This document shows positions 40,730 to 50,579 of a stretch of DNA of 64,000 nt, piece after piece. The stretch spans positions 128,001 through 192,000 of the forward strand of contig CAVOVB010000004.1 of assembly GCA_963699755.1 (NCBI GenBank). Reading direction: 5' to 3'. This DNA comes from an uncultured delta proteobacterium. GTDB lineage: Bacteria > Myxococcota_A > Polyangia > Polyangiales > Houyiibacteriaceae. The notes under the pieces are model-generated. The model saw only the letters and a program-made list of their open reading frames with translations. It did not search any database and was not told the DNA's origin. Made by a program: the position numbers and the translations under genes. How positions within the stretch are numbered: the stretch's first letter is position 1; each line of letters starts with the position of its first letter.

Positions 40730-41533
40730 CTACCTCACAAACCCAAAGTGCCGAAGGCCCTCTAGGACTCCTCGTGCATACGGATGCTTGGCGAAATAGA
40801 TCTTGTCGGCGATTCCTTGGGCGACCGATTCGATGCCCAAGTCCTTCTTGAGCGCTTGGTCCGCGTTCCCCACCACGATGACTCGAAACCCGGTCAGCAT
40901 CGCGGCCCGGTCGTTTCCCGAGTCGCCGGCATAGACCAGGTGCTGCTCATCGACGCCGCTGTGATCGTGGAGGTAGCGAACGGCATAGTCCTTGGCGATC
41001 CCGGCGGGGAGCACGTCCAGGAGGCCGCGGTCGCTCACCGGATCGTGACTTGCGACGAGGTTCGCATGCGTGTTCGCTGCGTCTAGCCTCGATTGCACGA
41101 TGTCGACGTACGGCTCGGGGCGTCCCTGCGTGTAGTAGCTGAGCTTGAACTCGCCCTGCTTCTCTTCTTCTTGAGGCTCCAGTCCCTCGATGGTGCCGAT
41201 CGCCGCCCGGATCTCGACGCCGCTCAAGCCACCGTAGGCCTTCCGCATCGCCTCGCGATACGCTTCATCCGGCTCGAACCCCCCATCCGTGCGTCGATAC
41301 ACGCTGGTTCCGACGTCGCAGACGAACCAATCGGGCGACGGCAGTCCGATCTCCGCAATCCCTTCCAGCGCAAGCGCCAGATGTCGGCCGGTGACGTACG
41401 CGAGCATCAGGTTGACGCTGTCGTCGAGCACGTCTACGAACTCTGTGACCTCACGCAAGCGTTGGGAATCGCGCTCCAGGGGGATCAGCGTCCCATCCAA
41501 GTCGGACGCAAGGAGTGAACGTGTTACGCTCAT
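40730..41533 (-). CDS. spp: HAD-IIB sucrose-phosphate phosphatase-like protein
   Basis: SDLDGTL, YVTGR, QGEFKLSY, LDVLP...AK, AGDSGND; divergent from the SPS fusion. Confidence 0.85.
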   Translation of the reverse strand: MSVTRSLLASDLDGTLIPLERDSQRLREVTEFVDVLDDSVNLMLAYVTGRHLALALEGIAEIGLPSPDWFVCDVGTSVYRRTDGGFEPDEAYREAMRKAYGGLSGVEIRAAIGTIEGLEPQEEEKQGEFKLSYYTQGRPEPYVDIVQSRLDAANTHANLVASHDPVSDRGLLDVLPAGIAKDYAVRYLHDHSGVDEQHLVYAGDSGNDRAAMLTGFRVIVVGNADQALKKDLGIESVAQGIADKIYFAKHPYARGVLEGLRHFGFVR

Positions 41534-41596
41534 GCCTGCGTGAGCCTAGCGAGGACCGAGCCCCCCTGCACCCCGGAATAAGTCAACTGAGAGCCT

Positions 41597-44500
41597 GTGC
41601 ATCGATTCCACAAACGACCTGTGATTTTCGGGGAGGTGCTGTTCGACCACTTTCCAGACGGCAGCCGTGTCTTGGGAGGCGCCCCGTTCAACGTCGCCTG
41701 GCATTTGCGGGGATTCAACTCGAATCCCCTGGTGATCAGCGCGGTCGGCGACGACGAGCAGGGCCAGGAAATCCTCGAACGAATGACGAGCTGGGACCTG
41801 ATGACCCACGGGGTGCAGGTCGACCCGGAGCATCCGACTGGCCGAGTGATCGCCTCAGTGGCGGACGGAGAAAACCGGTTCGAGATCGCGCCCGGACAAG
41901 CTTGGGACGCGATACGCGCGGAGCCGGCGCTCCGAAGCGCATTCGAAGAACCCGCAGGGCTCCTCTACCACGGCACGCTCGCCCTTCGCTCCGACGAGAG
42001 CTGGGCCACGCTTCGCAAGCTCAGAGCCGAGACCGACGCACCCTCCTTCGTCGACATCAACCTCCGCGACCCCTGGTGGAGCAGAGAGAAAGTCGACTGG
42101 TGTCTTCGGAACGGAAGTTGGATCAAGCTCAATGACAAAGAGCTCTCGGAGCTGACTTCCAAGCCAACCGGCTCGTTCGAAGAATGCCGCGACGCTGCCA
42201 TGGCACTTGCCCGCGACCACGGGAACGAGCGCCTCATCGTCACTCGCGGTGCGCAGGGAGCGATGTCGGTGCTGGGAGGTCAGACCGCGTTTGAAGCTCG
42301 TCCAGCCGCCGTGAAGAACCTGATTGACAGCGTAGGTGCAGGCGATGGGTTCAGCGCGATTATCTGCCTCGGGCTCCTTCAGGAATGGGATCACCAGGTG
42401 ATCCTCGATCGTGCGGCGGCCTTCGCTGCCGACCTATGCGGCATCCGCGGCGCGACGACGACCGATTTCGCCCTCTACGAACGGCACCTGACCGAGTGGG
42501 CCAAGGACACCAGCGCCGGCACCATCCGCGCTCCCGAAACGCACTCCCTCTACGTCTTGTCTCTCACCATCCACGGGCTCGTGCGCGCGCGCGACATCGA
42601 GCTCGGTCGCGATGCAGACACCGGCGGCCAGGTCTCGTACGTGGTCGACCAGGCGAGGGCACTTTCGGCTCGTCCAAACATAGAGCGTGTCGACGTCATC
42701 ACCCGGCTGATTGAGGATAGGCGGGTCGACCCGATCTACTCGCGCCCTTTCGAACCGATCAGCCGCGGCGCCCAAATCGTTCGAATCCCCTTCGGCCCGC
42801 GGCGCTACCTTCGCAAGGAATCCCTCTGGGAGCACCTCGACAGCTTGCTCGACCAACTGACCCGCTATGTTCGGATGCAGGAGCGCCCGCCCGACCTGAT
42901 CCATGGGCACTATGCCGATGCGGGCTATGTGGGCTCGCGTCTGGCGAAGCTCCTCGGGGTCCCGCTGGTGTTCACGGGCCACTCGCTCGGCCGGGTCAAG
43001 CAATTGCGTCTGCAGTCCAAAGCCGACGAAAGCGAGCAGACCTACCGCTTCGCGCAACGCATTGAAGCCGAAGAGCGTGCCCTCGAAAGCGCAGCGCTCG
43101 TCATTGCGAGCACCCGACAAGAGGTCCGGGAGCAATACGAGCTTTACGACCATTACCAGCCCGAGCGCATGCAGGTCATCCCGCCGGGCGTCGACCTTTC
43201 TCGTTTCTCCCCGCCTGGCGAGGCCTGGGAACGGCCGCGAATCGCCGACGAGCTCGGCCGTTTCCTGAGGGACCCGAGCAAGCCGATGGTCCTGGCGCTG
43301 GCCCGCGCCGATGAGCGTAAGAACTTCGAAGGGCTGGTCCGCGCGTTCGGCGAAACCGAAGGTCTCCGGGAGATGGCCAACTTGGTCATCGTCGCCGGAA
43401 ACCGCGACGACATCAGTGAGATGGGGGTGGGCCCGCGCCGCGTCTTGACCCAGATCCTGGCGCTGATCGATCGCTACGACCTCTATGGAAGCGTGGCCTA
43501 TCCCAAGCATCACGAGCCACGCGATGTGCCCGAGCTCTTCAGGCTTGCCGCCAAGACGAGAGGCGTCTTCGTAAACCCGGCGCTGACCGAGCCCTTCGGC
43601 CTCACTCTGCTCGAAGCCGCGGCCACCGGCCTGCCGCTGGTCGCCACCAACGATGGCGGCCCACAGGACATCATCGGGACCTGCAACAACGGCATCCTCG
43701 TCGACGCGCTCGATTCCGACGCGATCGGCGAAGCGATTCGCGACGCGCTGAGCGATCCGGGGCGCTGGTCACGCTGGGCCGAAGATGGGCTCGCAGCGGC
43801 GCACGCGAATTACTCCTGGGACAGCCACGCGACTCGATATGTCGAAGAGGCCAAGAAGATCTTGAAGGACATGCGTCATGCGCCCATCCGTCGACCGCAC
43901 ACGAAGCTTGCGGGCATGGACAGGCTGCTCGTCACCGACGTCGACGACACACTGACTGGAGACGACGAAGCCATGGCGATGCTGATGAAGCGCCTGGAGA
44001 CCACCGATGCGAAAGTCGGTTTCGGCATCGCGACCGGGCGCACCTTGGACGAAGCGCTCGCCCTCATGAACGAGCTGAACATGCCGGTTCCCGACGTCCT
44101 CATCACCGCGGCGGGAACTGAGCTCCACTACGGGACCCACTTGCTCCCCGACCGCTCCTGGGAGCGCCAGATTCGCTACCGTTGGGACCTGAACGAAGTG
44201 CACCGGGTCCTGCAGGGGATTCCTGGCCTCGACCGCGTTCACCCCTCGGAAACGAAGTATCGGCTCCGGTACCGCCTCGACCCCAAGCGTGCACCGGATC
44301 TCAAAGAAATCCGCCGCCGCGTTCGCCAAGAGGGGCTGCGGGTGACTACCATTTTGGATCATGAGATCTATCTGGATGTGCTCCCCATCCGCGCTTCCTG
44401 CGGGTTCGCGATTCGGTTTTTCTGCTTCAAGTGGAACCTCGAGCCTCAGCGCCTCCTGGTCGCCGGCGATTCCGGAAACGACTGGGACATGCTTTCGGGA

Positions 44501-44668
44501 GATACACTCGGCGTGGTCGTGAGCAATCACACCCCCGAGCTCGATCGGCTTCGCGGGCGGCCTCGTGTTCATTTTGCGAAGAGTGCTCACGCGCGCGGTA
44601 TCCTCGAGGGGATCGACTGGTACGATTTCTTAGGGGACATCAGAATCCCAGCCGAGGATCGAGAATGA
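41597..44668 (+). CDS. sps: Triple fusion: PfkB fructokinase + sucrose-phosphate synthase (GT4) + SPP-like HAD domain
   Basis: One 1023-aa ORF. Residues 1-~300 are PfkB (GEVLFD, GGAPFNVA, DSVGAGDGF). The middle is SPS (HGLVR..ELGRDADTGGQV, HGHYADAG, TGHSLGRVK, EPFGLTLLEA). The C-terminus is HAD (TDVDDTL, ATGR, GDSGND). Confidence 0.9.
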   Translation: MHRFHKRPVIFGEVLFDHFPDGSRVLGGAPFNVAWHLRGFNSNPLVISAVGDDEQGQEILERMTSWDLMTHGVQVDPEHPTGRVIASVADGENRFEIAPGQAWDAIRAEPALRSAFEEPAGLLYHGTLALRSDESWATLRKLRAETDAPSFVDINLRDPWWSREKVDWCLRNGSWIKLNDKELSELTSKPTGSFEECRDAAMALARDHGNERLIVTRGAQGAMSVLGGQTAFEARPAAVKNLIDSVGAGDGFSAIICLGLLQEWDHQVILDRAAAFAADLCGIRGATTTDFALYERHLTEWAKDTSAGTIRAPETHSLYVLSLTIHGLVRARDIELGRDADTGGQVSYVVDQARALSARPNIERVDVITRLIEDRRVDPIYSRPFEPISRGAQIVRIPFGPRRYLRKESLWEHLDSLLDQLTRYVRMQERPPDLIHGHYADAGYVGSRLAKLLGVPLVFTGHSLGRVKQLRLQSKADESEQTYRFAQRIEAEERALESAALVIASTRQEVREQYELYDHYQPERMQVIPPGVDLSRFSPPGEAWERPRIADELGRFLRDPSKPMVLALARADERKNFEGLVRAFGETEGLREMANLVIVAGNRDDISEMGVGPRRVLTQILALIDRYDLYGSVAYPKHHEPRDVPELFRLAAKTRGVFVNPALTEPFGLTLLEAAATGLPLVATNDGGPQDIIGTCNNGILVDALDSDAIGEAIRDALSDPGRWSRWAEDGLAAAHANYSWDSHATRYVEEAKKILKDMRHAPIRRPHTKLAGMDRLLVTDVDDTLTGDDEAMAMLMKRLETTDAKVGFGIATGRTLDEALALMNELNMPVPDVLITAAGTELHYGTHLLPDRSWERQIRYRWDLNEVHRVLQGIPGLDRVHPSETKYRLRYRLDPKRAPDLKEIRRRVRQEGLRVTTILDHEIYLDVLPIRASCGFAIRFFCFKWNLEPQRLLVAGDSGNDWDMLSGDTLGVVVSNHTPELDRLRGRPRVHFAKSAHARGILEGIDWYDFLGDIRIPAEDRE

Positions 44669-47064
44669 TTGAGACGCTCGACGAGCTGCTCCACTCCCAT
44701 CGCGAAGCCCTCTATCTCTTGTTCAGGCGACTGAAGGCGCTCGAACGTCGGTTCCTCCTCTGGTCGGATCTCGTACACGAGTGCGAACAGTTCACCGAGA
44801 CCGAAGTGGGTGCGCGGCTCCGCGACACCAAGATCACGGCGATCATGCGGCACACTCAGGAAGCCGTGGTCCATGAGCCGTTCATCTGTTTCGCGGTGCG
44901 GGTACGCGTCGGGCGTTGGCAGTACGTGCAGGTGAACACCGAGGAGATGCACAGCCGCGAGCTCAGCGTGACCGAGTTCCTCGACATCAAGGAGCGGATC
45001 GCAGCTGGGATTCCTCCGGGCGACCGCTACGTCCTCGAAGTCGATCTGAGCCCGTTCGAACGTGGCTTCCCGAAGCTCAAGGATCCTCGCAATATCGGGC
45101 GGGGCGTCGAGTTTTTGAACCGGCACTTGTCGGTCCGGCTCTTCATGGACGGCGGTCGCGGTCAGAAGCTCCTCTTCGACTTCTTGCAGGTCCACCAGGT
45201 TGGCGGACAGCAGCTGATGCTCAACGGAACGCTTCGTGACCTCGATGAGCTCCGCGAGGCGCTCGAAAATGCGCGCTCGGTCCTCGACGGCCACGAAGAG
45301 GAGAGCGCCGATCTCAGCCGCGCCCTTCGACGCTTGGGCTTCGAACCGGGTTGGGGGCGGGCGCCCGGGCAAATTCGCGAGATGATGGAGCTTCTTCTCG
45401 ACATCCTCGAGGCCCCGTCTCCCGGCAACCTTGCGCGCTTCTTGGCACGCATTCCGATGATTTTCTCGATCGCCATCATTTCGCCCCACGGCTATTTCGG
45501 ACAGTCCAATGTGCTCGGAAAGCCGGACACCGGCGGGCAGGTGGTCTACATCCTCGACCAGGTCCGCGCCTTGGAGCGCGAGATGCGGGAGTCGATCCAC
45601 GACCAGGGGCTCGACATCGTGCCGCAAATCGTGGTGCTGTCGCGCTTGATTCCGGAGGCAGACGGGACGACTTGCGACCAGCGTGTAGAGCCAATTCTCG
45701 GAACCGAGCATGCGAGCATCCTTCGGGTGCCGTTTCGCGACTATCACACCGGCGAAGTCATTCCTCATTGGATCTCCCGTTTCGCGGTCTGGCCGTACCT
45801 CGAGCGCTATGCCATCGATGCCGAGCGCGAGTTGCTCGCCGAGCTCGGCGGCGCACGCCCGGATTTCGTCATCGGCAACTACTCCGACGGCAACCTCGTT
45901 GCGAGCATCATGGCACACCGGCTCGGCGTCACCCAATGCAACATCGCCCACGCCCTCGAGAAGACGAAATACCTCCTCTCGGACCTGCACTGGCAGGACC
46001 ACGAGGCGGAGCATCACTTTGCGGCGCAGTACACCGCCGACCTCATGGCGATGAACACGGCCGACTTCATCATCACCAGCACCTATCAAGAGATCGCCGG
46101 AACCGCCGAAAGCGTAGGGCAATACGAGAGCTACGGCTCGTTCTCCCTCCCTCGGCTCTACCGGGTCGTTTCTGGAATCGACTGCTTCGATCCGAAGTTC
46201 AACATCGTCTCGCCGGGGGCCGACTCGCGGGTGTTCTTTCCCTATTTCGACGAAGCTCATCGCCCCGAAGAAATTCGCCAAGAAATCGAGAGGATGGTCT
46301 TTGGCTCACCGGACTGCGCTTACCGTGGTCTGTTGAGCAAGCAGGACAAGCCCCTGCTCTTCGCCATGTCTCGCCTGGATCGCATCAAGAACATGGCCGG
46401 CCTGGTAGAATGGTATGCGCAGAACCAAGAGCTGCGCGAGGTTGCGAACCTCGTCATCGTGGGGGGACGGCTTCGCACGGAGGAGTCGAACGACCGCGAC
46501 GAGCGGGAGCAGATCGAGCGCACCCATTGGCTCTTCGACACGTACAATCTCGAAGGCGATGTCCGCTGGATCGAAATGCAAACCGACAAGACCACGGTCG
46601 GCGAGCTCTACCGTTTCGTAGCAGACCAACGAGGCGCCTTCGTGCAGCCAGCCCTGTTCGAGGCGTTCGGCCTCACCGTCATCGAAGCGATGAGCAGCGG
46701 CCTTCCAACCTTCGCAACCCGCTACGGCGGCCCGCTCGAGATCATCCAACACGGGAAGTCGGGATTCCACATCGATCCGACCCAGGGCGGCGAAATCGCG
46801 CGACAGATGCTCGACTTCTTCCGAGCCTGCGAAAAGGACCCGGGCGTCTGGGATGCGATTTCGAAGGGTGGCATCGAGCGAGTGGAAGAGCGCTACAACT
46901 GGAAGCTCTACGCCTCGACCCTCATGAAGCTCTCGCGCATCTACGGCTTCTGGCGCTACATATCGTCACTGGAGAGGGACGAGACGAGGCGATACTTGGA
47001 GATGTTTTATGGGTTGTTGTTGAGGCCGTTGTCGAAGCGAGTGCTGGACAAGGGCGAAGCGTAG
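44665..47064 (+). CDS. susA: Sucrose synthase
   Basis: IGRGVEFLNRHL, GFEPGWG, SPHGYFGQSNVLGKPDTGGQVVYILDQ, HALEKTKY, EAFGLTVIEAM; ATG at 44665 overlaps the sps stop (ATGA). Confidence 0.95.
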   Translation: MIETLDELLHSHREALYLLFRRLKALERRFLLWSDLVHECEQFTETEVGARLRDTKITAIMRHTQEAVVHEPFICFAVRVRVGRWQYVQVNTEEMHSRELSVTEFLDIKERIAAGIPPGDRYVLEVDLSPFERGFPKLKDPRNIGRGVEFLNRHLSVRLFMDGGRGQKLLFDFLQVHQVGGQQLMLNGTLRDLDELREALENARSVLDGHEEESADLSRALRRLGFEPGWGRAPGQIREMMELLLDILEAPSPGNLARFLARIPMIFSIAIISPHGYFGQSNVLGKPDTGGQVVYILDQVRALEREMRESIHDQGLDIVPQIVVLSRLIPEADGTTCDQRVEPILGTEHASILRVPFRDYHTGEVIPHWISRFAVWPYLERYAIDAERELLAELGGARPDFVIGNYSDGNLVASIMAHRLGVTQCNIAHALEKTKYLLSDLHWQDHEAEHHFAAQYTADLMAMNTADFIITSTYQEIAGTAESVGQYESYGSFSLPRLYRVVSGIDCFDPKFNIVSPGADSRVFFPYFDEAHRPEEIRQEIERMVFGSPDCAYRGLLSKQDKPLLFAMSRLDRIKNMAGLVEWYAQNQELREVANLVIVGGRLRTEESNDRDEREQIERTHWLFDTYNLEGDVRWIEMQTDKTTVGELYRFVADQRGAFVQPALFEAFGLTVIEAMSSGLPTFATRYGGPLEIIQHGKSGFHIDPTQGGEIARQMLDFFRACEKDPGVWDAISKGGIERVEERYNWKLYASTLMKLSRIYGFWRYISSLERDETRRYLEMFYGLLLRPLSKRVLDKGEA

Positions 47065-47219: not shown

Positions 47220-49352
47220 TCAGTGCCCCTGAAGCGCAAGCCGCACGGTGTCCCCGTCGCGTCCCGTCGCCTTCGCAACCCCGTCATCGCCCAGAAGCTC
47301 GACTCGCAACTCCCGATTCGCCCTCGAGCGCCGACCTTCCTCTTGCCCGACCCGAACCTCCAACGCGCCGCCCCGGAGAACCGCCTCGTACGTCGTCAGC
47401 AGGTAGTCGCCTTCGCGGTAGCCAAATCCGTCGCCGGCGTCTTCGTAGAGACGGCCGGATGCGTTCCCTGACGCATCCAATGACACGATGAGCGTCAGCG
47501 GGCCCTCGACGGCTTCGTCGCTAGTCTGTCCGCCAGAACCGACTGGCAGAATCGCTCCATCGCGCAGTCGGAGGATCGGGTTCGCGGAGGTCGCCTCGGC
47601 GGTTTCTCCCGCGAGCGCGAACGAACGCCAGCGTCCCGCCGGCAGCGCGAAGTCGTGCGTCCCACTCTCGACGAGTCGAGGTTGAACCAGCACGTCGCCG
47701 CCGAGCAGGAAGGCATGATCTTCATCGCGAAGCGAAAGGTCGGCTGGATCCGCGAAGAACAGGGGGCGCGCGACCGGCAGCCCCGTCGTCGCCGCATCGT
47801 GGAATGAGGTGTAGAGATAGGGGAGAAGCCGGTATCGGCGAGTCAGCGCCAGCCGGGATAGCTCCTCGGCGCGCTCGCCGAACGACCAGGGCTCCTGGTT
47901 GCCGCGCAGGGCGTTGTGGTTCCGGAAGAAGGGCAAGAGGGCGCCCACTCCCATCCAGTGCGCAAAAAGGTCCGGGGAGGGCATACCCGCAAAACCGCCC
48001 ACGTCGGGCCCAGAGTACGGCTGCCCCGACAGGCCGAGGTTCAAAGCCATCGGCACCGACCAGTGCAGGTGCTCCCACGTCGAGCTGTTGTCACCGGTCC
48101 AGGTCGCGGCATAGCGTTGCCCACCGAGGTAGCTCGACCGAGTCAGAACGAAAGGGCGCCGATCCGGGCGGGCCTCACGCATCGCATCGTATGTAGCTTT
48201 GGACATCAAGAGCCCGTAAACGTTGTGGTATTGGGCATGGTTTCCAGGGGCGATGTCGCCGCCGCCGCGATGTCGAAGGTCCTCGGGCAGCTCGGCGCCA
48301 AGCGGCAGAATCGGGGAAGGCTCGTTCAGATCGACCCAGACCCCGTCCATCCCCTGTTCGAGAAACTCGATCGTCCGTCGCAGCCACCAGGCGCGGGTCT
48401 CGGGGCGTGTATAGTCGGGGAAGGCCGCGTAGCCGGGCCAGGTCCATTCTTGGTGTTCCCGGCCTTCGGCGTCGGTCAGGAAGTGAGATCCGGACACCCC
48501 TTCGTCATAGACCGCGTACCCCGCCTCCGCCTTGATCGCCGGATCGAGAATCCAGACCGACTTGAAGTCGAGCGCGTGCAAGTAGTCATTCGTGCCCTTG
48601 GGGTCGGGAAAGCGCTCTGGGTCGAACGTGAACACCTTGTACTCGTCCATGTAGTGAATATCGACCCAGATGACGTCGCAGGGAAGCTCGCGCTTTCGAA
48701 ACTCCTCGGCGAGCTCCCGCACGCGCGAGTCCGGGTAGTAGGAGAATCGGCATTGGTGATAGCCCAGCGTCCATCTGGGCGGAAGCTCGATTCGGCCCAT
48801 CAAGTCTGCGAGCCTCCGCAGCACTTCCTGCGGCGAAGCACCTTCGATGACGATGACCGGGAAGGGCTGCGCCGAGCTGAGCCTGATCCCGTCGCGAAGG
48901 TCGATCTCGAGCCGATAGGTCGTATCGGCAAGCACCCCAAACGCGCTGCCGTCCGCGCGCAGGGCCAAGACCCAGGGATGCGCTTGATAGAGACTCTTCG
49001 AACGCTCATCGTAGCGCGGCGCCGGCTTCCCATCCTCTTCGATGCGAAACGGCTGCTTCGCCCAGCACTCGGTGACGAAGCCATTGCGCAGGAGCGGGCC
49101 GGCAACTTCACCGGTGCCGTAGAAGCTCGTGTTGGGGTCGGTGCGGATGGCGGCGACGAAACGGTCTTGGCTGCACTCGAAGCGCGGAACCACAGGCCAG
49201 GAGCCAGGCACGGAGCCATGTGCGGGCAGCGGCTCGAGGAGCGCGAAGGAGCGCGGAAGCGTCGCAGGGTCGACGCTGGACGGAACGAAGCGGGCCACGC
49301 CATCGGCGATAAGCCCCGGTTCCTGATGCGTTGGCGCAGACACGATCCGCAC
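47220..49352 (-). CDS. GH31 alpha-glucosidase
   Basis: LGYHQCRFSY, DIHYMD, WVDLNEPS (nucleophile), HNVYG, WTGDN (acid/base), DVGGF; start may be GTG 49343. Confidence 0.93.
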   Translation of the reverse strand: MRIVSAPTHQEPGLIADGVARFVPSSVDPATLPRSFALLEPLPAHGSVPGSWPVVPRFECSQDRFVAAIRTDPNTSFYGTGEVAGPLLRNGFVTECWAKQPFRIEEDGKPAPRYDERSKSLYQAHPWVLALRADGSAFGVLADTTYRLEIDLRDGIRLSSAQPFPVIVIEGASPQEVLRRLADLMGRIELPPRWTLGYHQCRFSYYPDSRVRELAEEFRKRELPCDVIWVDIHYMDEYKVFTFDPERFPDPKGTNDYLHALDFKSVWILDPAIKAEAGYAVYDEGVSGSHFLTDAEGREHQEWTWPGYAAFPDYTRPETRAWWLRRTIEFLEQGMDGVWVDLNEPSPILPLGAELPEDLRHRGGGDIAPGNHAQYHNVYGLLMSKATYDAMREARPDRRPFVLTRSSYLGGQRYAATWTGDNSSTWEHLHWSVPMALNLGLSGQPYSGPDVGGFAGMPSPDLFAHWMGVGALLPFFRNHNALRGNQEPWSFGERAEELSRLALTRRYRLLPYLYTSFHDAATTGLPVARPLFFADPADLSLRDEDHAFLLGGDVLVQPRLVESGTHDFALPAGRWRSFALAGETAEATSANPILRLRDGAILPVGSGGQTSDEAVEGPLTLIVSLDASGNASGRLYEDAGDGFGYREGDYLLTTYEAVLRGGALEVRVGQEEGRRSRANRELRVELLGDDGVAKATGRDGDTVRLALQGH

Positions 49353-49505: not shown

Positions 49506-49632
49506 CGTTGCGCTGAACGCAGCAGGCATCGGCAGATTGTCCTTTGATTTCGTGACGTGGCGCCCGCCGGCGGCCCTCCACCAAACCACCACAGTGGTCT
49601 CGCTAAGCTCCGGGAATCTCAAGAACCGCTTC

Positions 49633-49648
49633 CGGCATGGTATTCGCT
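49633..49648 (+). promoter_or_regulatory. Possible sigma54 -24/-12 promoter of the transposase
   Basis: CGGCATGGTATTCGCT: GG-N10-GC; predicted start site ~3 nt before ATG 49662. Confidence 0.4.
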
Positions 49649-49661
49649 TCTCTCCACCGAT

Positions 49662-50579
49662 ATGACCCGACCTCGCATCGTGGATCCGGGCGCCACCTTG
49701 GCGGTCTCTCGGCGCACCACACGACGGCACTTCCTTCTCCATCCCGACGACGCGCGACAGATGGAACGGGTGTATTGGTATTGCCTGGCGCACGCGGCGA
49801 AGCTTCATGGCGTCCTGGTCCATGCAGCCTGCCTCATGTCGACCCACTCCCACGAGGTCATCACCGATGTGCGGGGCGAGTATCCGAAATTTTTGCAGAC
49901 CTTGCACCGTAATTTGGCTCTGTGTACCAAGGCCTTTCGCGGCTGGCCCGAAGAAGTGTTCAATAAGGAAAGTAGCGGCGTCCATGCGTTGCTGACTCCC
50001 GAAGCGATCATCGACTCCATCGCCTATCTCATCGTGAATCCGGTTGAAGCAGGGGCGGTGCGCTACGCCAAAGACTGGCCCGGGGCGCACACACTCCCTG
50101 GCCATGTCGGGACCCGCGTCATTCGAGTTAAGCGGCCCAGGCATTACTTCGACCCTGACAACCCCGAGTGGCCTGATGAACTCGAGCTTCAGTTGGAGAT
50201 GCCCGTGGCGCTCGCGCTAGACTATGGGCCCGAGCTTGCCCGTGACCGCATTGCAGAGCGGGTGCACGACAAGCAACACCATGCGTGGAACAAGGCCAAG
50301 CGCAGCGGCCTCTCCTTTGTCGGGCCGAGGCGTGTCCTGAAACTCGCTCACACCAAGCGGGCCAAGAGCTATGAAGTGTTTGGGAGCCTCAACCCGCGAT
50401 TTGCCGCTTCGGGCAATCGAGCGGCGGCGACCGAAGCAGTGAAGCGGCTTCGAGCATTCAAGGCGCGATACGCACGCGCGCTCCAGGCGTGGACCGCGGG
50501 AGATCGAAGCGCATGCTTTCCTGAGGGCACCTGGTGGATGCGGGTCTGCCACGGAGCGCGCTGCGGACCTGGACCGTAG
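49662..50579 (+). mobile_element. REP-associated tyrosine transposase-like (HUH/Y1) gene
   Basis: MTRPR...SRRTTRR..LL.P, HAACLMSTHSHEV (HUH), IAYLIVNPVEAG (catalytic Tyr), C-terminal FPEGTWWMR. Confidence 0.85.

Follow-up and report, generated by a model that had tools for sequence, protein, structure and literature searches.

A PfkB kinase fused to SPS and an SPP-like HAD domain in an uncultured sediment myxobacterium

Introduction

Among cyanobacteria, an SPS with an inactive phosphohydrolase domain, accompanied by a separate sucrose-phosphatase (SPP), is reported to be the commoner arrangement (PMC6753628). The phosphohydrolase domain of Synechocystis PCC 6803 SPS is described as inactive and lacking the motif-I Asp (PMC9971976), and the SPS enzyme from Synechococcus elongatus PCC 7942 is described as bifunctional (PMC9971976, PMC6753628). 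A 2023 review lists the role of the SPP-like domain in bidomain SPS as an open question (PMC9971976). In Synechocystis SPP, the motif-III Lys is reported to bind the phosphate of sucrose-6-phosphate (Suc6P) (PMC5113954); this residue is also credited with stabilizing the phospho-Asp, and Gln107, Lys116 and Asn189 are given as the glucose-binding residues (PMC9971976). For the SPS reaction itself, His158 and Glu331 are reported as essential in the T. elongatus enzyme (PMC7264703). At the level of gene organization, Synechococcus PCC 7002 is described as having an spsA-sppA-frkA-amsA operon (PMC11046441).

Here we analyze a locus from an uncultured delta proteobacterium (GTDB Myxococcota_A, Polyangia, Polyangiales, Houyiibacteriaceae; assembly GCA_963699755.1, contig CAVOVB010000004.1), a sediment myxobacterium. 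The window, meaning the whole stretch of DNA analyzed, comprises 64,000 nt (contig positions 128,001 to 192,000, forward strand). It contains a gene in which a PfkB kinase, a full SPS and an SPP-like HAD domain are joined (Table 1).

Table 1. Features of the sucrose locus, in window positions.
Feature	Position	Strand	Remarks
Stand-alone SPP-family gene, 267 aa, divergent	40730..41533	-	Pfam S6PP; all catalytic and sugar-binding residues present
Divergent spp-fusion spacer, 63 bp	41534..41596	.	Genus-conserved; presumably a shared promoter region
frk-sps-HAD fused gene	41597..44668	+	1023 aa, GTG start; Pfam and NCBIfam profiles, 117 full-length clusters
PfkB kinase domain, residues 1-300, probable fructokinase	41597..42496	+	G27-G28, N32, D244, G247-A-G-D250 intact
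Kinase-SPS linker, residues 301-317	42497..42547	+	Variable sequence, near-constant length, low pLDDT; bridged by independent contig
SPS GT4 domain, residues 318-755	42548..43861	+	TIGR02472 over cut-off; H462, R570, K575, E665, E673 invariant
SPP-like HAD-IIB domain, residues 776-1023	43922..44665	+	D781, D783, T785, D958, D962 kept; Lys replaced by C935
Sucrose synthase (SuSy), 799 aa	44665..47064	+	TIGR02470 1122.7 bits vs 810.4; ATG overlaps fusion TGA
GH31 alpha-glucosidase, convergent	47220..49352	-	Usual genus neighbor; sucrose-pathway link uncertain

Architecture of the fused gene and its junction

The fused ORF contains zero internal stops, and its start site is kept across loci (GTG in 35 of 37, ATG in the other 2). 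Pfam places PfkB at residues 21-288 (E 3e-34) and S6PP at residues 775-1011 (E 1e-67). Both relevant NCBIfam models are passed: TIGR02472 (SPS) at residues 318-751, with 661.5 bits against a cut-off of 576, and TIGR02471 at residues 777-1011, with 283.3 bits against 209.75. The fusion is thus real, and the preliminary description was right both in reporting an uninterrupted 1023-aa three-domain ORF and in calling the GGAPFN (residues 27-32) and GAGD (residues 247-250) motifs intact.

The region between the anchors flanking the kinase-SPS linker measures 39-44 residues in the 39 representative fusions listed, with free sequence. In the fusion analyzed here, the only start-type codon of this region is a TTG without an SD, 3 codons ahead of the SPS T-I-H-G and within strand beta-1. 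Across 42 fused rows no conserved internal start was found in the linker, and an SD-flanked candidate start occurs in 2 of the 42, which agrees with the earlier statement that the junction offers neither Met nor SD for a separate SPS start.

That an assembly error or frameshift artificially joins two genes is hardly conceivable. Such a reading could draw on the metagenome-assembled origin of the host genome (contamination 9%), on split relatives that show a frame change at the same junction, and on the NCBI annotation of the relative P0297 as a 704-aa protein without the kinase. It is refuted by four observations. Of the top 120 database clusters, 117 are full-length fusions of 978-1091 aa, with identity reaching as low as 57%; the reading frame is intact in 34 of 39 loci (L002-L040); and locus L023, whose named organism is that of P0297, has a single open frame of 1025 codons. 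In addition, an independent contig from run X2 covers 42377-42606 with 2 substitutions and zero gaps, and so crosses the junction at ~42480-42560 that the preliminary description had marked as the place where reads might break the frame. The frameshift in the fragmentary relative L033 lies near residue 336, within SPS and outside the linker.

The kinase and SPS domains

Catalytic residues of both domains are kept in 116-117 of 117 fusions. The kinase has the PfkB fold, the GG..N sugar site, and the D-x-x-G-A-G-D motif of anion hole and catalytic base; in the fusions, the GG/N residues of the sugar site, the anion hole and D250 are invariant. It does not pass the NCBIfam fructokinase equivalog NF006957 (59.2 vs 450 bits) and belongs to a different PfkB subfamily, the GGAPFN type whose stand-alone members occur in sps-spp-frk-sus operons. 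Its motifs recur in stand-alone orthologues from split sucrose operons, many of which are named fructokinase by JGI. The best solved sequence match is Bacteroides thetaiotaomicron fructokinase 2QHP, with which fold comparison agrees; 2QHP is called a fructokinase solely by its depositors. No second fructokinase-like PfkB gene stands out in the host genome. Taken from gene context only, fructose is the probable substrate. Of the three domains, the kinase shows the lowest conservation (mean identity 61% vs 68% for HAD; dN/dS 0.126).

SPS catalytic residues were located by motif and by alignment to Halothermothrix orenii SPS 2R60, the best solved sequence match of this domain, again in agreement with fold comparison. 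The catalytic His and the E-X7-E pair (H462, E665 and E673) are present in 117/117 fusions, and dN/dS is 0.070. The domain would make Suc6P from NDP-glucose and fructose-6-phosphate (F6P), the donor here probably being UDP-glucose.

The fused SPP-like domain and the separate SPP gene

Residues of the fused HAD domain were numbered from an alignment to Synechocystis sucrose-phosphatase 1S2O, its best solved match (E 6e-29). Motif I DxDxT, the motif II Thr (Thr41, 158/159 fused rows) and the terminal GDSGND (Asn189, 156/159) are retained, and the five residues listed as kept in Table 1 are invariant in all 159. The position of the motif-III Lys (Lys163) is occupied by Cys935 (codon 44399-44401). 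This Lys is found in 0/159 fused rows and 0/75 split or truncated in-group rows, and its replacements (P, C, L, S, A) are never basic; it occurs in 113 of the 123 representatives of the wider family and in 54/54 stand-alone SPPs of these loci. In the cap, K116 and S118 (Synechocystis numbering) have become R889 and R891, with K116 changed to Arg in 159/159 fused rows and S118 in 158/159. At the glucose site, Gln107 is variable, Lys116 is replaced throughout and Asn189 is kept in 156. The combination of four Asp, no Lys and R-x-R is confined to the 3 nearest of the 123 representatives; in 2 others Ser replaces Lys while the cap is normal, a state expected on a stepwise route. Judged from its four invariant Asp, two new cap Arg and dN/dS of 0.08, the domain is not decaying, and the two new invariant Arg could stand in for the lost Lys.

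The divergent stand-alone gene scores far above the Pfam S6PP cut-off (186 vs 20.3 bits) and misses the NCBIfam SPP cut-offs (TIGR01485, 91 vs 183.65 bits; TIGR01482, 61.5 vs 107.15 bits), its best solved match also being 1S2O (E 3e-16). D9, D11, Q107, K116, S118, K163, D186, N189 and D190 are present in 54/54 stand-alone SPPs. A separate SPP-family gene accompanies the fused HAD match in 45/45 genus genomes, 39 having the adjacent type and 6 another SPP-family gene of 35-39% identity, with all motifs present in the 4 of these 6 that were examined. Among 42 genomes carrying the adjacent type, just 1 has a second SPP, which is partial. The 6 replacement genes represent about 2 independent events and, because they lie beside other glycoside hydrolase genes, may serve another pathway. 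From these residues and this distribution, the separate SPP neighbor probably performs the final step to sucrose. Neither this gene nor Cys935 appears in the preliminary description.

Gene neighborhood and host metabolism

All four functions of a sucrose cluster (sps, spp, frk, and sus or ams) are present at this locus. The fusion stop and SuSy start form an ATGA overlap in the window and in 38 of 43 loci, and the other 5 overlap as TTGA or GTGA, or abut; SuSy is thus translationally coupled in 43/43 loci, as first proposed. At its nucleotide-specificity ('QN') positions SuSy reads Q...V, keeping the Gln and not the Asn. Between 40500 and 49600, no sigma-70 consensus site was found, and terminator-like sites showed no excess over chance.

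The host genome carries pgi, fbp, a PF01704 UDP-glucose pyrophosphorylase-family gene and GT3 glycogen synthases, with neither glgC nor galU over cut-off. No intact GT5 glycogen synthase was found in it; one GT5 match lacks KxGGL, which we take to be the motif expected in that enzyme. Since no intact GT5 was found and the glycogen synthases are of the GT3 type, SuSy as an ADP-glucose source replacing a missing GlgC is not supported.

Distribution and evolution of the fusion

At least 117 full-length clusters carry the fusion, from one uncultured Polyangiales genus and from some Gemmatimonadota. Within the genus it is retained wherever the gene is complete, and it points to sucrose metabolism in 28 of 36 genomes of this common uncultured sediment myxobacterial genus. 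Split sister loci keep frk and sps as separate genes in the identical order, the stop codon of frk overlapping the ATG of sps. From this order, the fusion is seen to have joined adjacent frk and sps genes. Trees and AU tests used 44 hand-picked rows of 244, leaving out the contig-truncated L011 and the mis-started P0297. Split forms nest within the fused rows at three places, and a strictly monophyletic fused group is rejected (AU p 0.00068); on these trees the fused or split state has changed more than once, which indicates that the join is dispensable or easily remade. One gain and three splits (4 changes) is the simplest reading, and several gains are possible. A transfer in the direction from Gemmatimonadota to Myxococcota is no more than suggested by the trees, because grouping the named Gemmatimonadota rows together is compatible with the data (AU p 0.237).

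Functional interpretation

The full-length AlphaFold model, a single model without controls, has a pTM of 0.84, where ~0.5-0.7 would be expected if either flanking domain floated; a single-sequence fold of residues 1-763 was uninformative (pLDDT 34.9). The model suggests that the three domains pack together, and hence that they may be functionally coupled.

On balance, and with somewhat better than even confidence, we favor a bifunctional fructokinase/SPS derived from frk-sps read-through, whose C-terminal SPP-like domain would bind a sugar phosphate and Mg but act as a sucrose-phosphatase poorly or not at all. The read-through would have merged two neighboring genes, frk and sps, of the sucrose cluster already known from bacteria. 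The SPS domain would convert NDP-glucose (probably UDP-glucose) and F6P to Suc6P, from which the divergent SPP would free sucrose, presumably used as an osmolyte. Once sucrose is not required any more, the coupled SuSy would cleave it to fructose, returned to the F6P pool by the kinase domain, and NDP-glucose, directed towards GT3 glycogen synthase. The fusion would set a 1:1 kinase:SPS stoichiometry and probably pack the domains, without F6P having to be channeled. This proposal is consistent with the conservation and dN/dS of the kinase and SPS domains, the contrast in motif-III Lys between fused domains and stand-alone SPPs, the separate SPP in every genome with a fused HAD match, the commoner cyanobacterial arrangement (PMC6753628), the gene order and overlapping frk stop of the split sister loci, and the host's enzyme complement. 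Against it, the HAD domain keeps its four catalytic Asp in 159/159 rows and is better conserved than the kinase, with a dN/dS of 0.082, where loss of the nucleophile would be expected of a dead domain; the new Arg could replace Lys, the predicted packing allows functional coupling, and the replacement SPPs, few in origin, may act elsewhere.

It is possible, if doubtful, that the HAD domain is an active, re-tooled enzyme in which R889 and R891 (or R932) replace the Lys, acting on Suc6P or another sugar phosphate while the separate SPP adds capacity. Its invariant catalytic residues, the Arg swaps with their narrow distribution, its dN/dS and the bifunctional S. elongatus PCC 7942 precedent (PMC9971976, PMC6753628) speak for this; the non-basic residues at the Lys position, the unconserved Gln107 and the universal stand-alone SPP speak against it. 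An allosteric switch of sucrose turnover, in which the domains pack and the rebuilt HAD serves as a new sensor of sugar phosphate or as a phosphatase with altered specificity, appears unlikely. If true, it would separate kinase and SPS in time, so that the SuSy-kinase-SPS-SPP loop is not futile, and the protein would be the first SPS fused to a kinase as well as a natural experiment on the role of SPP-like domains in bidomain SPS. It is very unlikely that the PfkB domain is mainly a fructose/ATP sensor regulating SPS, or a kinase for another sugar; the low NF006957 score, the weaker conservation and the depositor-given name of 2QHP leave some room for this, and the invariant active site, the motif-sharing orthologues in split sucrose operons and the lack of a prominent alternative gene oppose it. 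A complete turn of SuSy, kinase, SPS and SPP amounts to net hydrolysis of one ATP. The preliminary description envisaged a trifunctional enzyme channeling SuSy-released fructose through F6P to Suc6P, and perhaps to sucrose, in a compact cycle. The universal SuSy coupling, the fixed domain positions suggested by the model, the near-constant linker and the genus-wide retention of the fusion fit that scheme. We nevertheless find it improbable and the channeling unsupported, because the cycle burns ATP, pgi and fbp also supply F6P, and split forms nest among the fused; the HAD domain also lacks the motif-III Lys. The predicted packing leaves physical coupling possible. As for a route from fructose to sucrose(-6-P) in one polypeptide, the hedge towards Suc6P was well placed; release of free sucrose is unsupported, since the conserved Lys is missing from the HAD domain and each fusion-bearing genome checked has a complete SPP as a separate gene.

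Under the favored bifunctional reading, the fusion would offer a ready one-protein route from fructose, ATP and NDP-glucose to Suc6P. The clade is a natural variant for the SPP-like domain question, the domain being conserved like SPS, with its nucleophile kept, its Lys gone and a complete SPP adjacent. The fusion also tests whether joining consecutive enzymes buys channeling, with naturally split relatives as controls.

Comparison with known systems

The closest solved relatives, H. orenii SPS (2R60) and B. thetaiotaomicron fructokinase (2QHP), are single-domain proteins, unlike the fusion, and no PDB chain listed in the fold comparison spans more than one of the three fused domains. Bidomain cyanobacterial SPS share the GT4 and HAD-IIB domains, for which TIGR02472 and TIGR02471 are both over cut-off in the fusion, but lack its extra N-terminal kinase. 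Compared with Synechocystis PCC 6803 SPS, the fused HAD keeps the motif-I Asp and lacks the motif-III Lys. Relative to Synechocystis SPP (1S2O), it is without Lys163 and Gln107, and positions 116 and 118 are occupied by Arg, whereas the stand-alone SPP keeps the residues at all four positions. In 10 outgroup rows the SPP-like domain keeps the Lys, with Gly for Asp186 and Asn for Thr13, whereas the fused clade keeps the Asp and has lost the Lys.

The literature search, covering titles and abstract openings, found no described kinase-SPS fusion, though full texts or supplements could mention one. To this extent the architecture is undescribed, as had been proposed, but it rearranges a known operon. 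Proteobacterial sps-spp-frk-sus clusters (Nitrosomonas europaea type, SuSy PDB 4RBN; loci L051-L062) and the PCC 7002 operon (PMC11046441) bring the same four functions together, sharing an SPS that ends in an SPP-like domain, a separate SPP, a GGAPFN PfkB kinase and a sucrose-cleaving enzyme. Unlike in those clusters and that of PCC 7002, the kinase here is upstream of sps and joined with it in one gene, and spp is divergent. On present evidence, the locus departs from known sucrose metabolism in a real but modest way and is neither a new pathway nor new chemistry.

Genomic context of the fusion gene

ORF reading together with Pfam and NCBIfam matches confirmed that the kinase, sucrose-phosphate synthase (SPS) and HAD domains of the preliminary description lie in a single ORF. 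Its supposed coupling to the sucrose synthase (SuSy) gene was borne out by an ATGA start/stop overlap, present in the window and in 38 of 43 loci; in the remaining five, the two genes overlap otherwise or abut. At residues ~636-646, SuSy from the 26 matched in-group loci has Gln where plant SuSy has Q648 and Val in place of N654; most of the five proteobacterial loci differ in this.

Features of the sucrose cluster and its surroundings
Feature	Position	Strand	Remarks
Kinase-SPS-HAD fusion ORF	41597-44668	+	GTG start, 1023 aa, no internal stop
PfkB kinase domain	residues 21-288 of fusion	+	Pfam/NCBIfam match
SPS domain	residues 318-751 of fusion	+	TIGR02472, 661.5 bits (cut-off 576)
SPP-like HAD domain	residues 777-1011 of fusion	+	TIGR02471, 283.3 bits (cut-off 209.75)
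Sucrose synthase gene	44665-47064	+	TIGR02470 above cut-off
S6PP-family gene, stand-alone	40730-41533	-	267 aa, 63 bp from fusion start
GH31 alpha-glucosidase gene, convergent	47220-49352	-	best PDB match 5djw, E 1e-208
Divergent spacer, spp/fusion	41534-41596	.	63 bp, conserved across genus
340-aa ORF	49557-50579	+	weak REP-associated tyrosine transposase match, 27.8 bits (cut-off 80)

The divergent S6PP-family gene had been overlooked in the first reading. The spacer separating it from the fusion is strongly conserved throughout the genus, including loci that have lost spp yet retain a remnant of its first codons, and is probably an overlapping bidirectional promoter. In most loci of the genus the GH31 gene lies convergent to sus, and the Gemmatimonadota and proteobacterial loci examined showed no such neighbor; it could provide a second sucrose-cleaving route or reflect plain synteny.

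Reality and distribution of the fusion

The fusion is real and common. Full-length fusions of 978-1091 aa (57-100% identity) account for 117 of the best 120 clusters, formed at 90% identity, so that at least 117 exist. Named records derive from Polyangiales/Myxococcales and Gemmatimonadota (Longimicrobiales) MAGs, and among the matches listed no record name indicates a cultured strain. A marine sediment contig from run X2, whose study is not that of the best-matching dataset, bridges the kinase-SPS junction (42377-42606) with two substitutions and no gaps. In line with the preliminary description, the linker region offers no conserved separate SPS start: candidates preceded by a Shine-Dalgarno sequence occur in two of 42 fused rows.

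Within the window's genus, 28 of 36 genomes carry the gene; among 24 genomes from other families of the order, one gave a match, to the kinase only. Across a phylum sample of 301 genomes, SPS scored above cut-off in 16, of which 13 belong to the same genus (frames of 1023-1029 codons) and three have frames of 490-877 codons. In the phylum of the genome carrying locus L046, SPS was found in 4/401 genomes, two with frames exceeding 1050 codons. Mis-called starts and labels such as 'PfkB family kinase' or 'HAD-IIB hydrolase' mask the architecture in databases; for instance, P0297 ('Myxococcales bacterium SG8_38', L023:3478-6552) is annotated by NCBI as a 704-aa HAD hydrolase in a frame open for 1025 codons.

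Kinase and SPS domains

Kinase residues G27, G28 and N32 are retained in 116 of 117 fusions, and D244, G247, G249 and D250, like SPS residues H462, R570, K575, E665 and E673, in all 117. Equivalents of the His and first Glu, mapped by motif and via 2R60, are reported to be essential in Thermosynechococcus elongatus SPS (PMC7264703). With dN/dS values of 0.126 (kinase) and 0.070 (SPS; 53 close pairs, 35 coding sequences), both domains look active. The kinase scores 59 against the NCBIfam fructokinase cut-off of 450, so the name 'fructokinase' rests on gene context; this GGAPFN subfamily stands alone within sucrose operons in 20/20 split and outgroup rows.

AlphaFold2, run with a 90-sequence alignment, gave a mean pLDDT of 88.0 and a pTM of 0.84, with low confidence confined to linkers and ends. 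Since pTM would, by calculation, stay near or below ~0.5-0.7 if the kinase or the HAD domain floated freely, this one uncontrolled prediction places the domains in set positions with moderate confidence. Foldseek searches returned single-domain matches only among those listed.

The HAD domain and the stand-alone SPP

Cys935 of the fusion aligns with Lys163 of Synechocystis SPP (1S2O), a residue reported to contact the phosphate of sucrose-6-phosphate (Suc6P; PMC5113954) and to stabilize the phospho-Asp intermediate (PMC9971976). Among HAD rows drawn from proteins and loci that overlap and are kin, Lys is missing from this position in 159/159 fused rows, which carry P (119), C (21), L (10), S (8) or A (1) instead, and in all 75 split or truncated in-group rows, and its loss therefore predates the fusion. 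Ten outgroup rows keep Lys163 and have lost Asp186 and Thr13. Among wider representatives (150 fetched), 113 of the 123 covering all sites retain Lys163. The fused HAD domain lacks a defining feature of active SPPs, and stand-alone SPPs carry every catalytic and sugar-binding residue at nine sites (54/54).

The fused HAD domain is encoded in 45 of 55 genus genomes, each of which also has a stand-alone SPP; this points to a requirement for the separate enzyme. Six others have neither. The accompanying SPP is the adjacent type in 39 and a different one in six, representing about two events, one of which left the adjacent gene behind as a broken remnant; motifs are intact in the four of these six examined. 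Different-type SPP genes adjoin a GH100/GH63-like six-hairpin glycosidase (L063:5467-7561 and L065) or, in L066, a GH13 gene; an MscS channel gene and LigD genes lie nearby in L063-L064. Genus member G013, which lacks the fusion and the sucrose cluster, has a different osmolyte cluster (L073:6987-10297), in which an 809-codon frame places an S6PP-type HAD domain before a GT20 glycosyltransferase, followed by a PfkB gene.

A simply dead HAD domain is argued against by invariant D781, D783, T785, D958 and D962, a mean identity above that of the kinase (68% vs 61%), a dN/dS of 0.082 and two new cap arginines, R889 (159/159 fused rows) and R891 (158/159). Only the three nearest of the 123 representatives share this combination of four kept aspartates, absent Lys and two cap arginines, and residue comparison indicates a remodeled domain.

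Origin of the fusion

Proteobacterial-type loci (L051, L053, L055-L062) begin with sps and carry a separate frk behind it, sps-spp-frk-sus being the usual arrangement. Loci L041-L044, L047 and L050 have divergent spp, then frk and sps, with sus behind as far as the contigs extend; the frk stop overlaps or almost touches the sps start, and the kinase-SPS anchors lie 118-124 nt apart, out of frame. In fused loci this spacing is 126-156 nt, in frame.

An IQ-TREE phylogeny built on 44 rows, chosen by hand from 244, places all 24 fused rows within one branch (SH-aLRT 98), which also holds five split rows at three places and requires four state changes; monophyly of the fused rows was rejected (AU p 0.00068). 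The kinase tree broadly agrees, with weaker support. In two nested split pairs, whose members were matched by equal contig size, the linker stays on the kinase and SPS restarts at its first strand, as would be expected after later fission. One gain and three splits form the simplest history; several independent gains are possible. Polyangiales rows form one branch (support 100) amid Gemmatimonadota-labelled rows in a tree whose rows mostly lack taxonomy, which suggests transfer in either direction; keeping the named Gemmatimonadota rows together was not rejected (AU p 0.237).

Proposed function

We favor, with some reserve, a kinase-SPS enzyme whose HAD domain binds a ligand or acts weakly. 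SPS would make Suc6P, the divergent SPP would free sucrose as an osmolyte, SuSy would re-cleave it and the kinase would recover the released fructose. Besides pgi, fbp and otsAB-type genes, the genome encodes a PF01704 pyrophosphorylase of eukaryote type, glycogen synthases of family GT3, one of them next to GH57 and debranching genes, and a divergent GT5 protein (L067, L068, L069, L071, L072); no glgC or galU scored above cut-off in the whole genome. On this gene content, UDP-glucose is the more probable donor and glycogen the more probable sink. Cyanobacterial SuSy is reported to act in vivo in the direction of cleavage (PMC6753628).

The main rival, a re-tooled active HAD site, would account for the invariant catalytic residues, purifying dN/dS and gained arginines; the missing Lys163 and the universal companion SPP make it doubtful. 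The boldest reading, in which the three domains form an allosterically coupled switch and the HAD domain offers a new ligand site, has a low probability. The preliminary description proposed that one polypeptide converts fructose to sucrose(-6-P), with channelling of the fructose released by SuSy. Its kinase and SPS parts are supported by intact residues; the HAD part is weakened by the absent Lys and separate SPP. When SuSy, kinase, SPS and SPP all run, one ATP is hydrolysed for no net product, so strict channelling of fructose into Suc6P would oppose sucrose removal. This waste and the secondary splitting of the fusion make channelling an improbable purpose.

Comparison with known systems

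The protein belongs to the bacterial SPS and PfkB families. Our literature search, beyond whose reach the main papers on non-photosynthetic sucrose clusters lay, returned no description of a kinase-SPS fusion. As far as the accessible text of PMC11046441 describes them, the sps-spp-frk-sus/ams clusters of proteobacteria and Synechococcus PCC 7002 work like the window's cluster. SPS with an inactive phosphohydrolase domain and a separate SPP is likewise known from the available portions of PMC9971976 and PMC6753628; the fused kinase and the particular remodeling of the HAD domain set the window protein apart.
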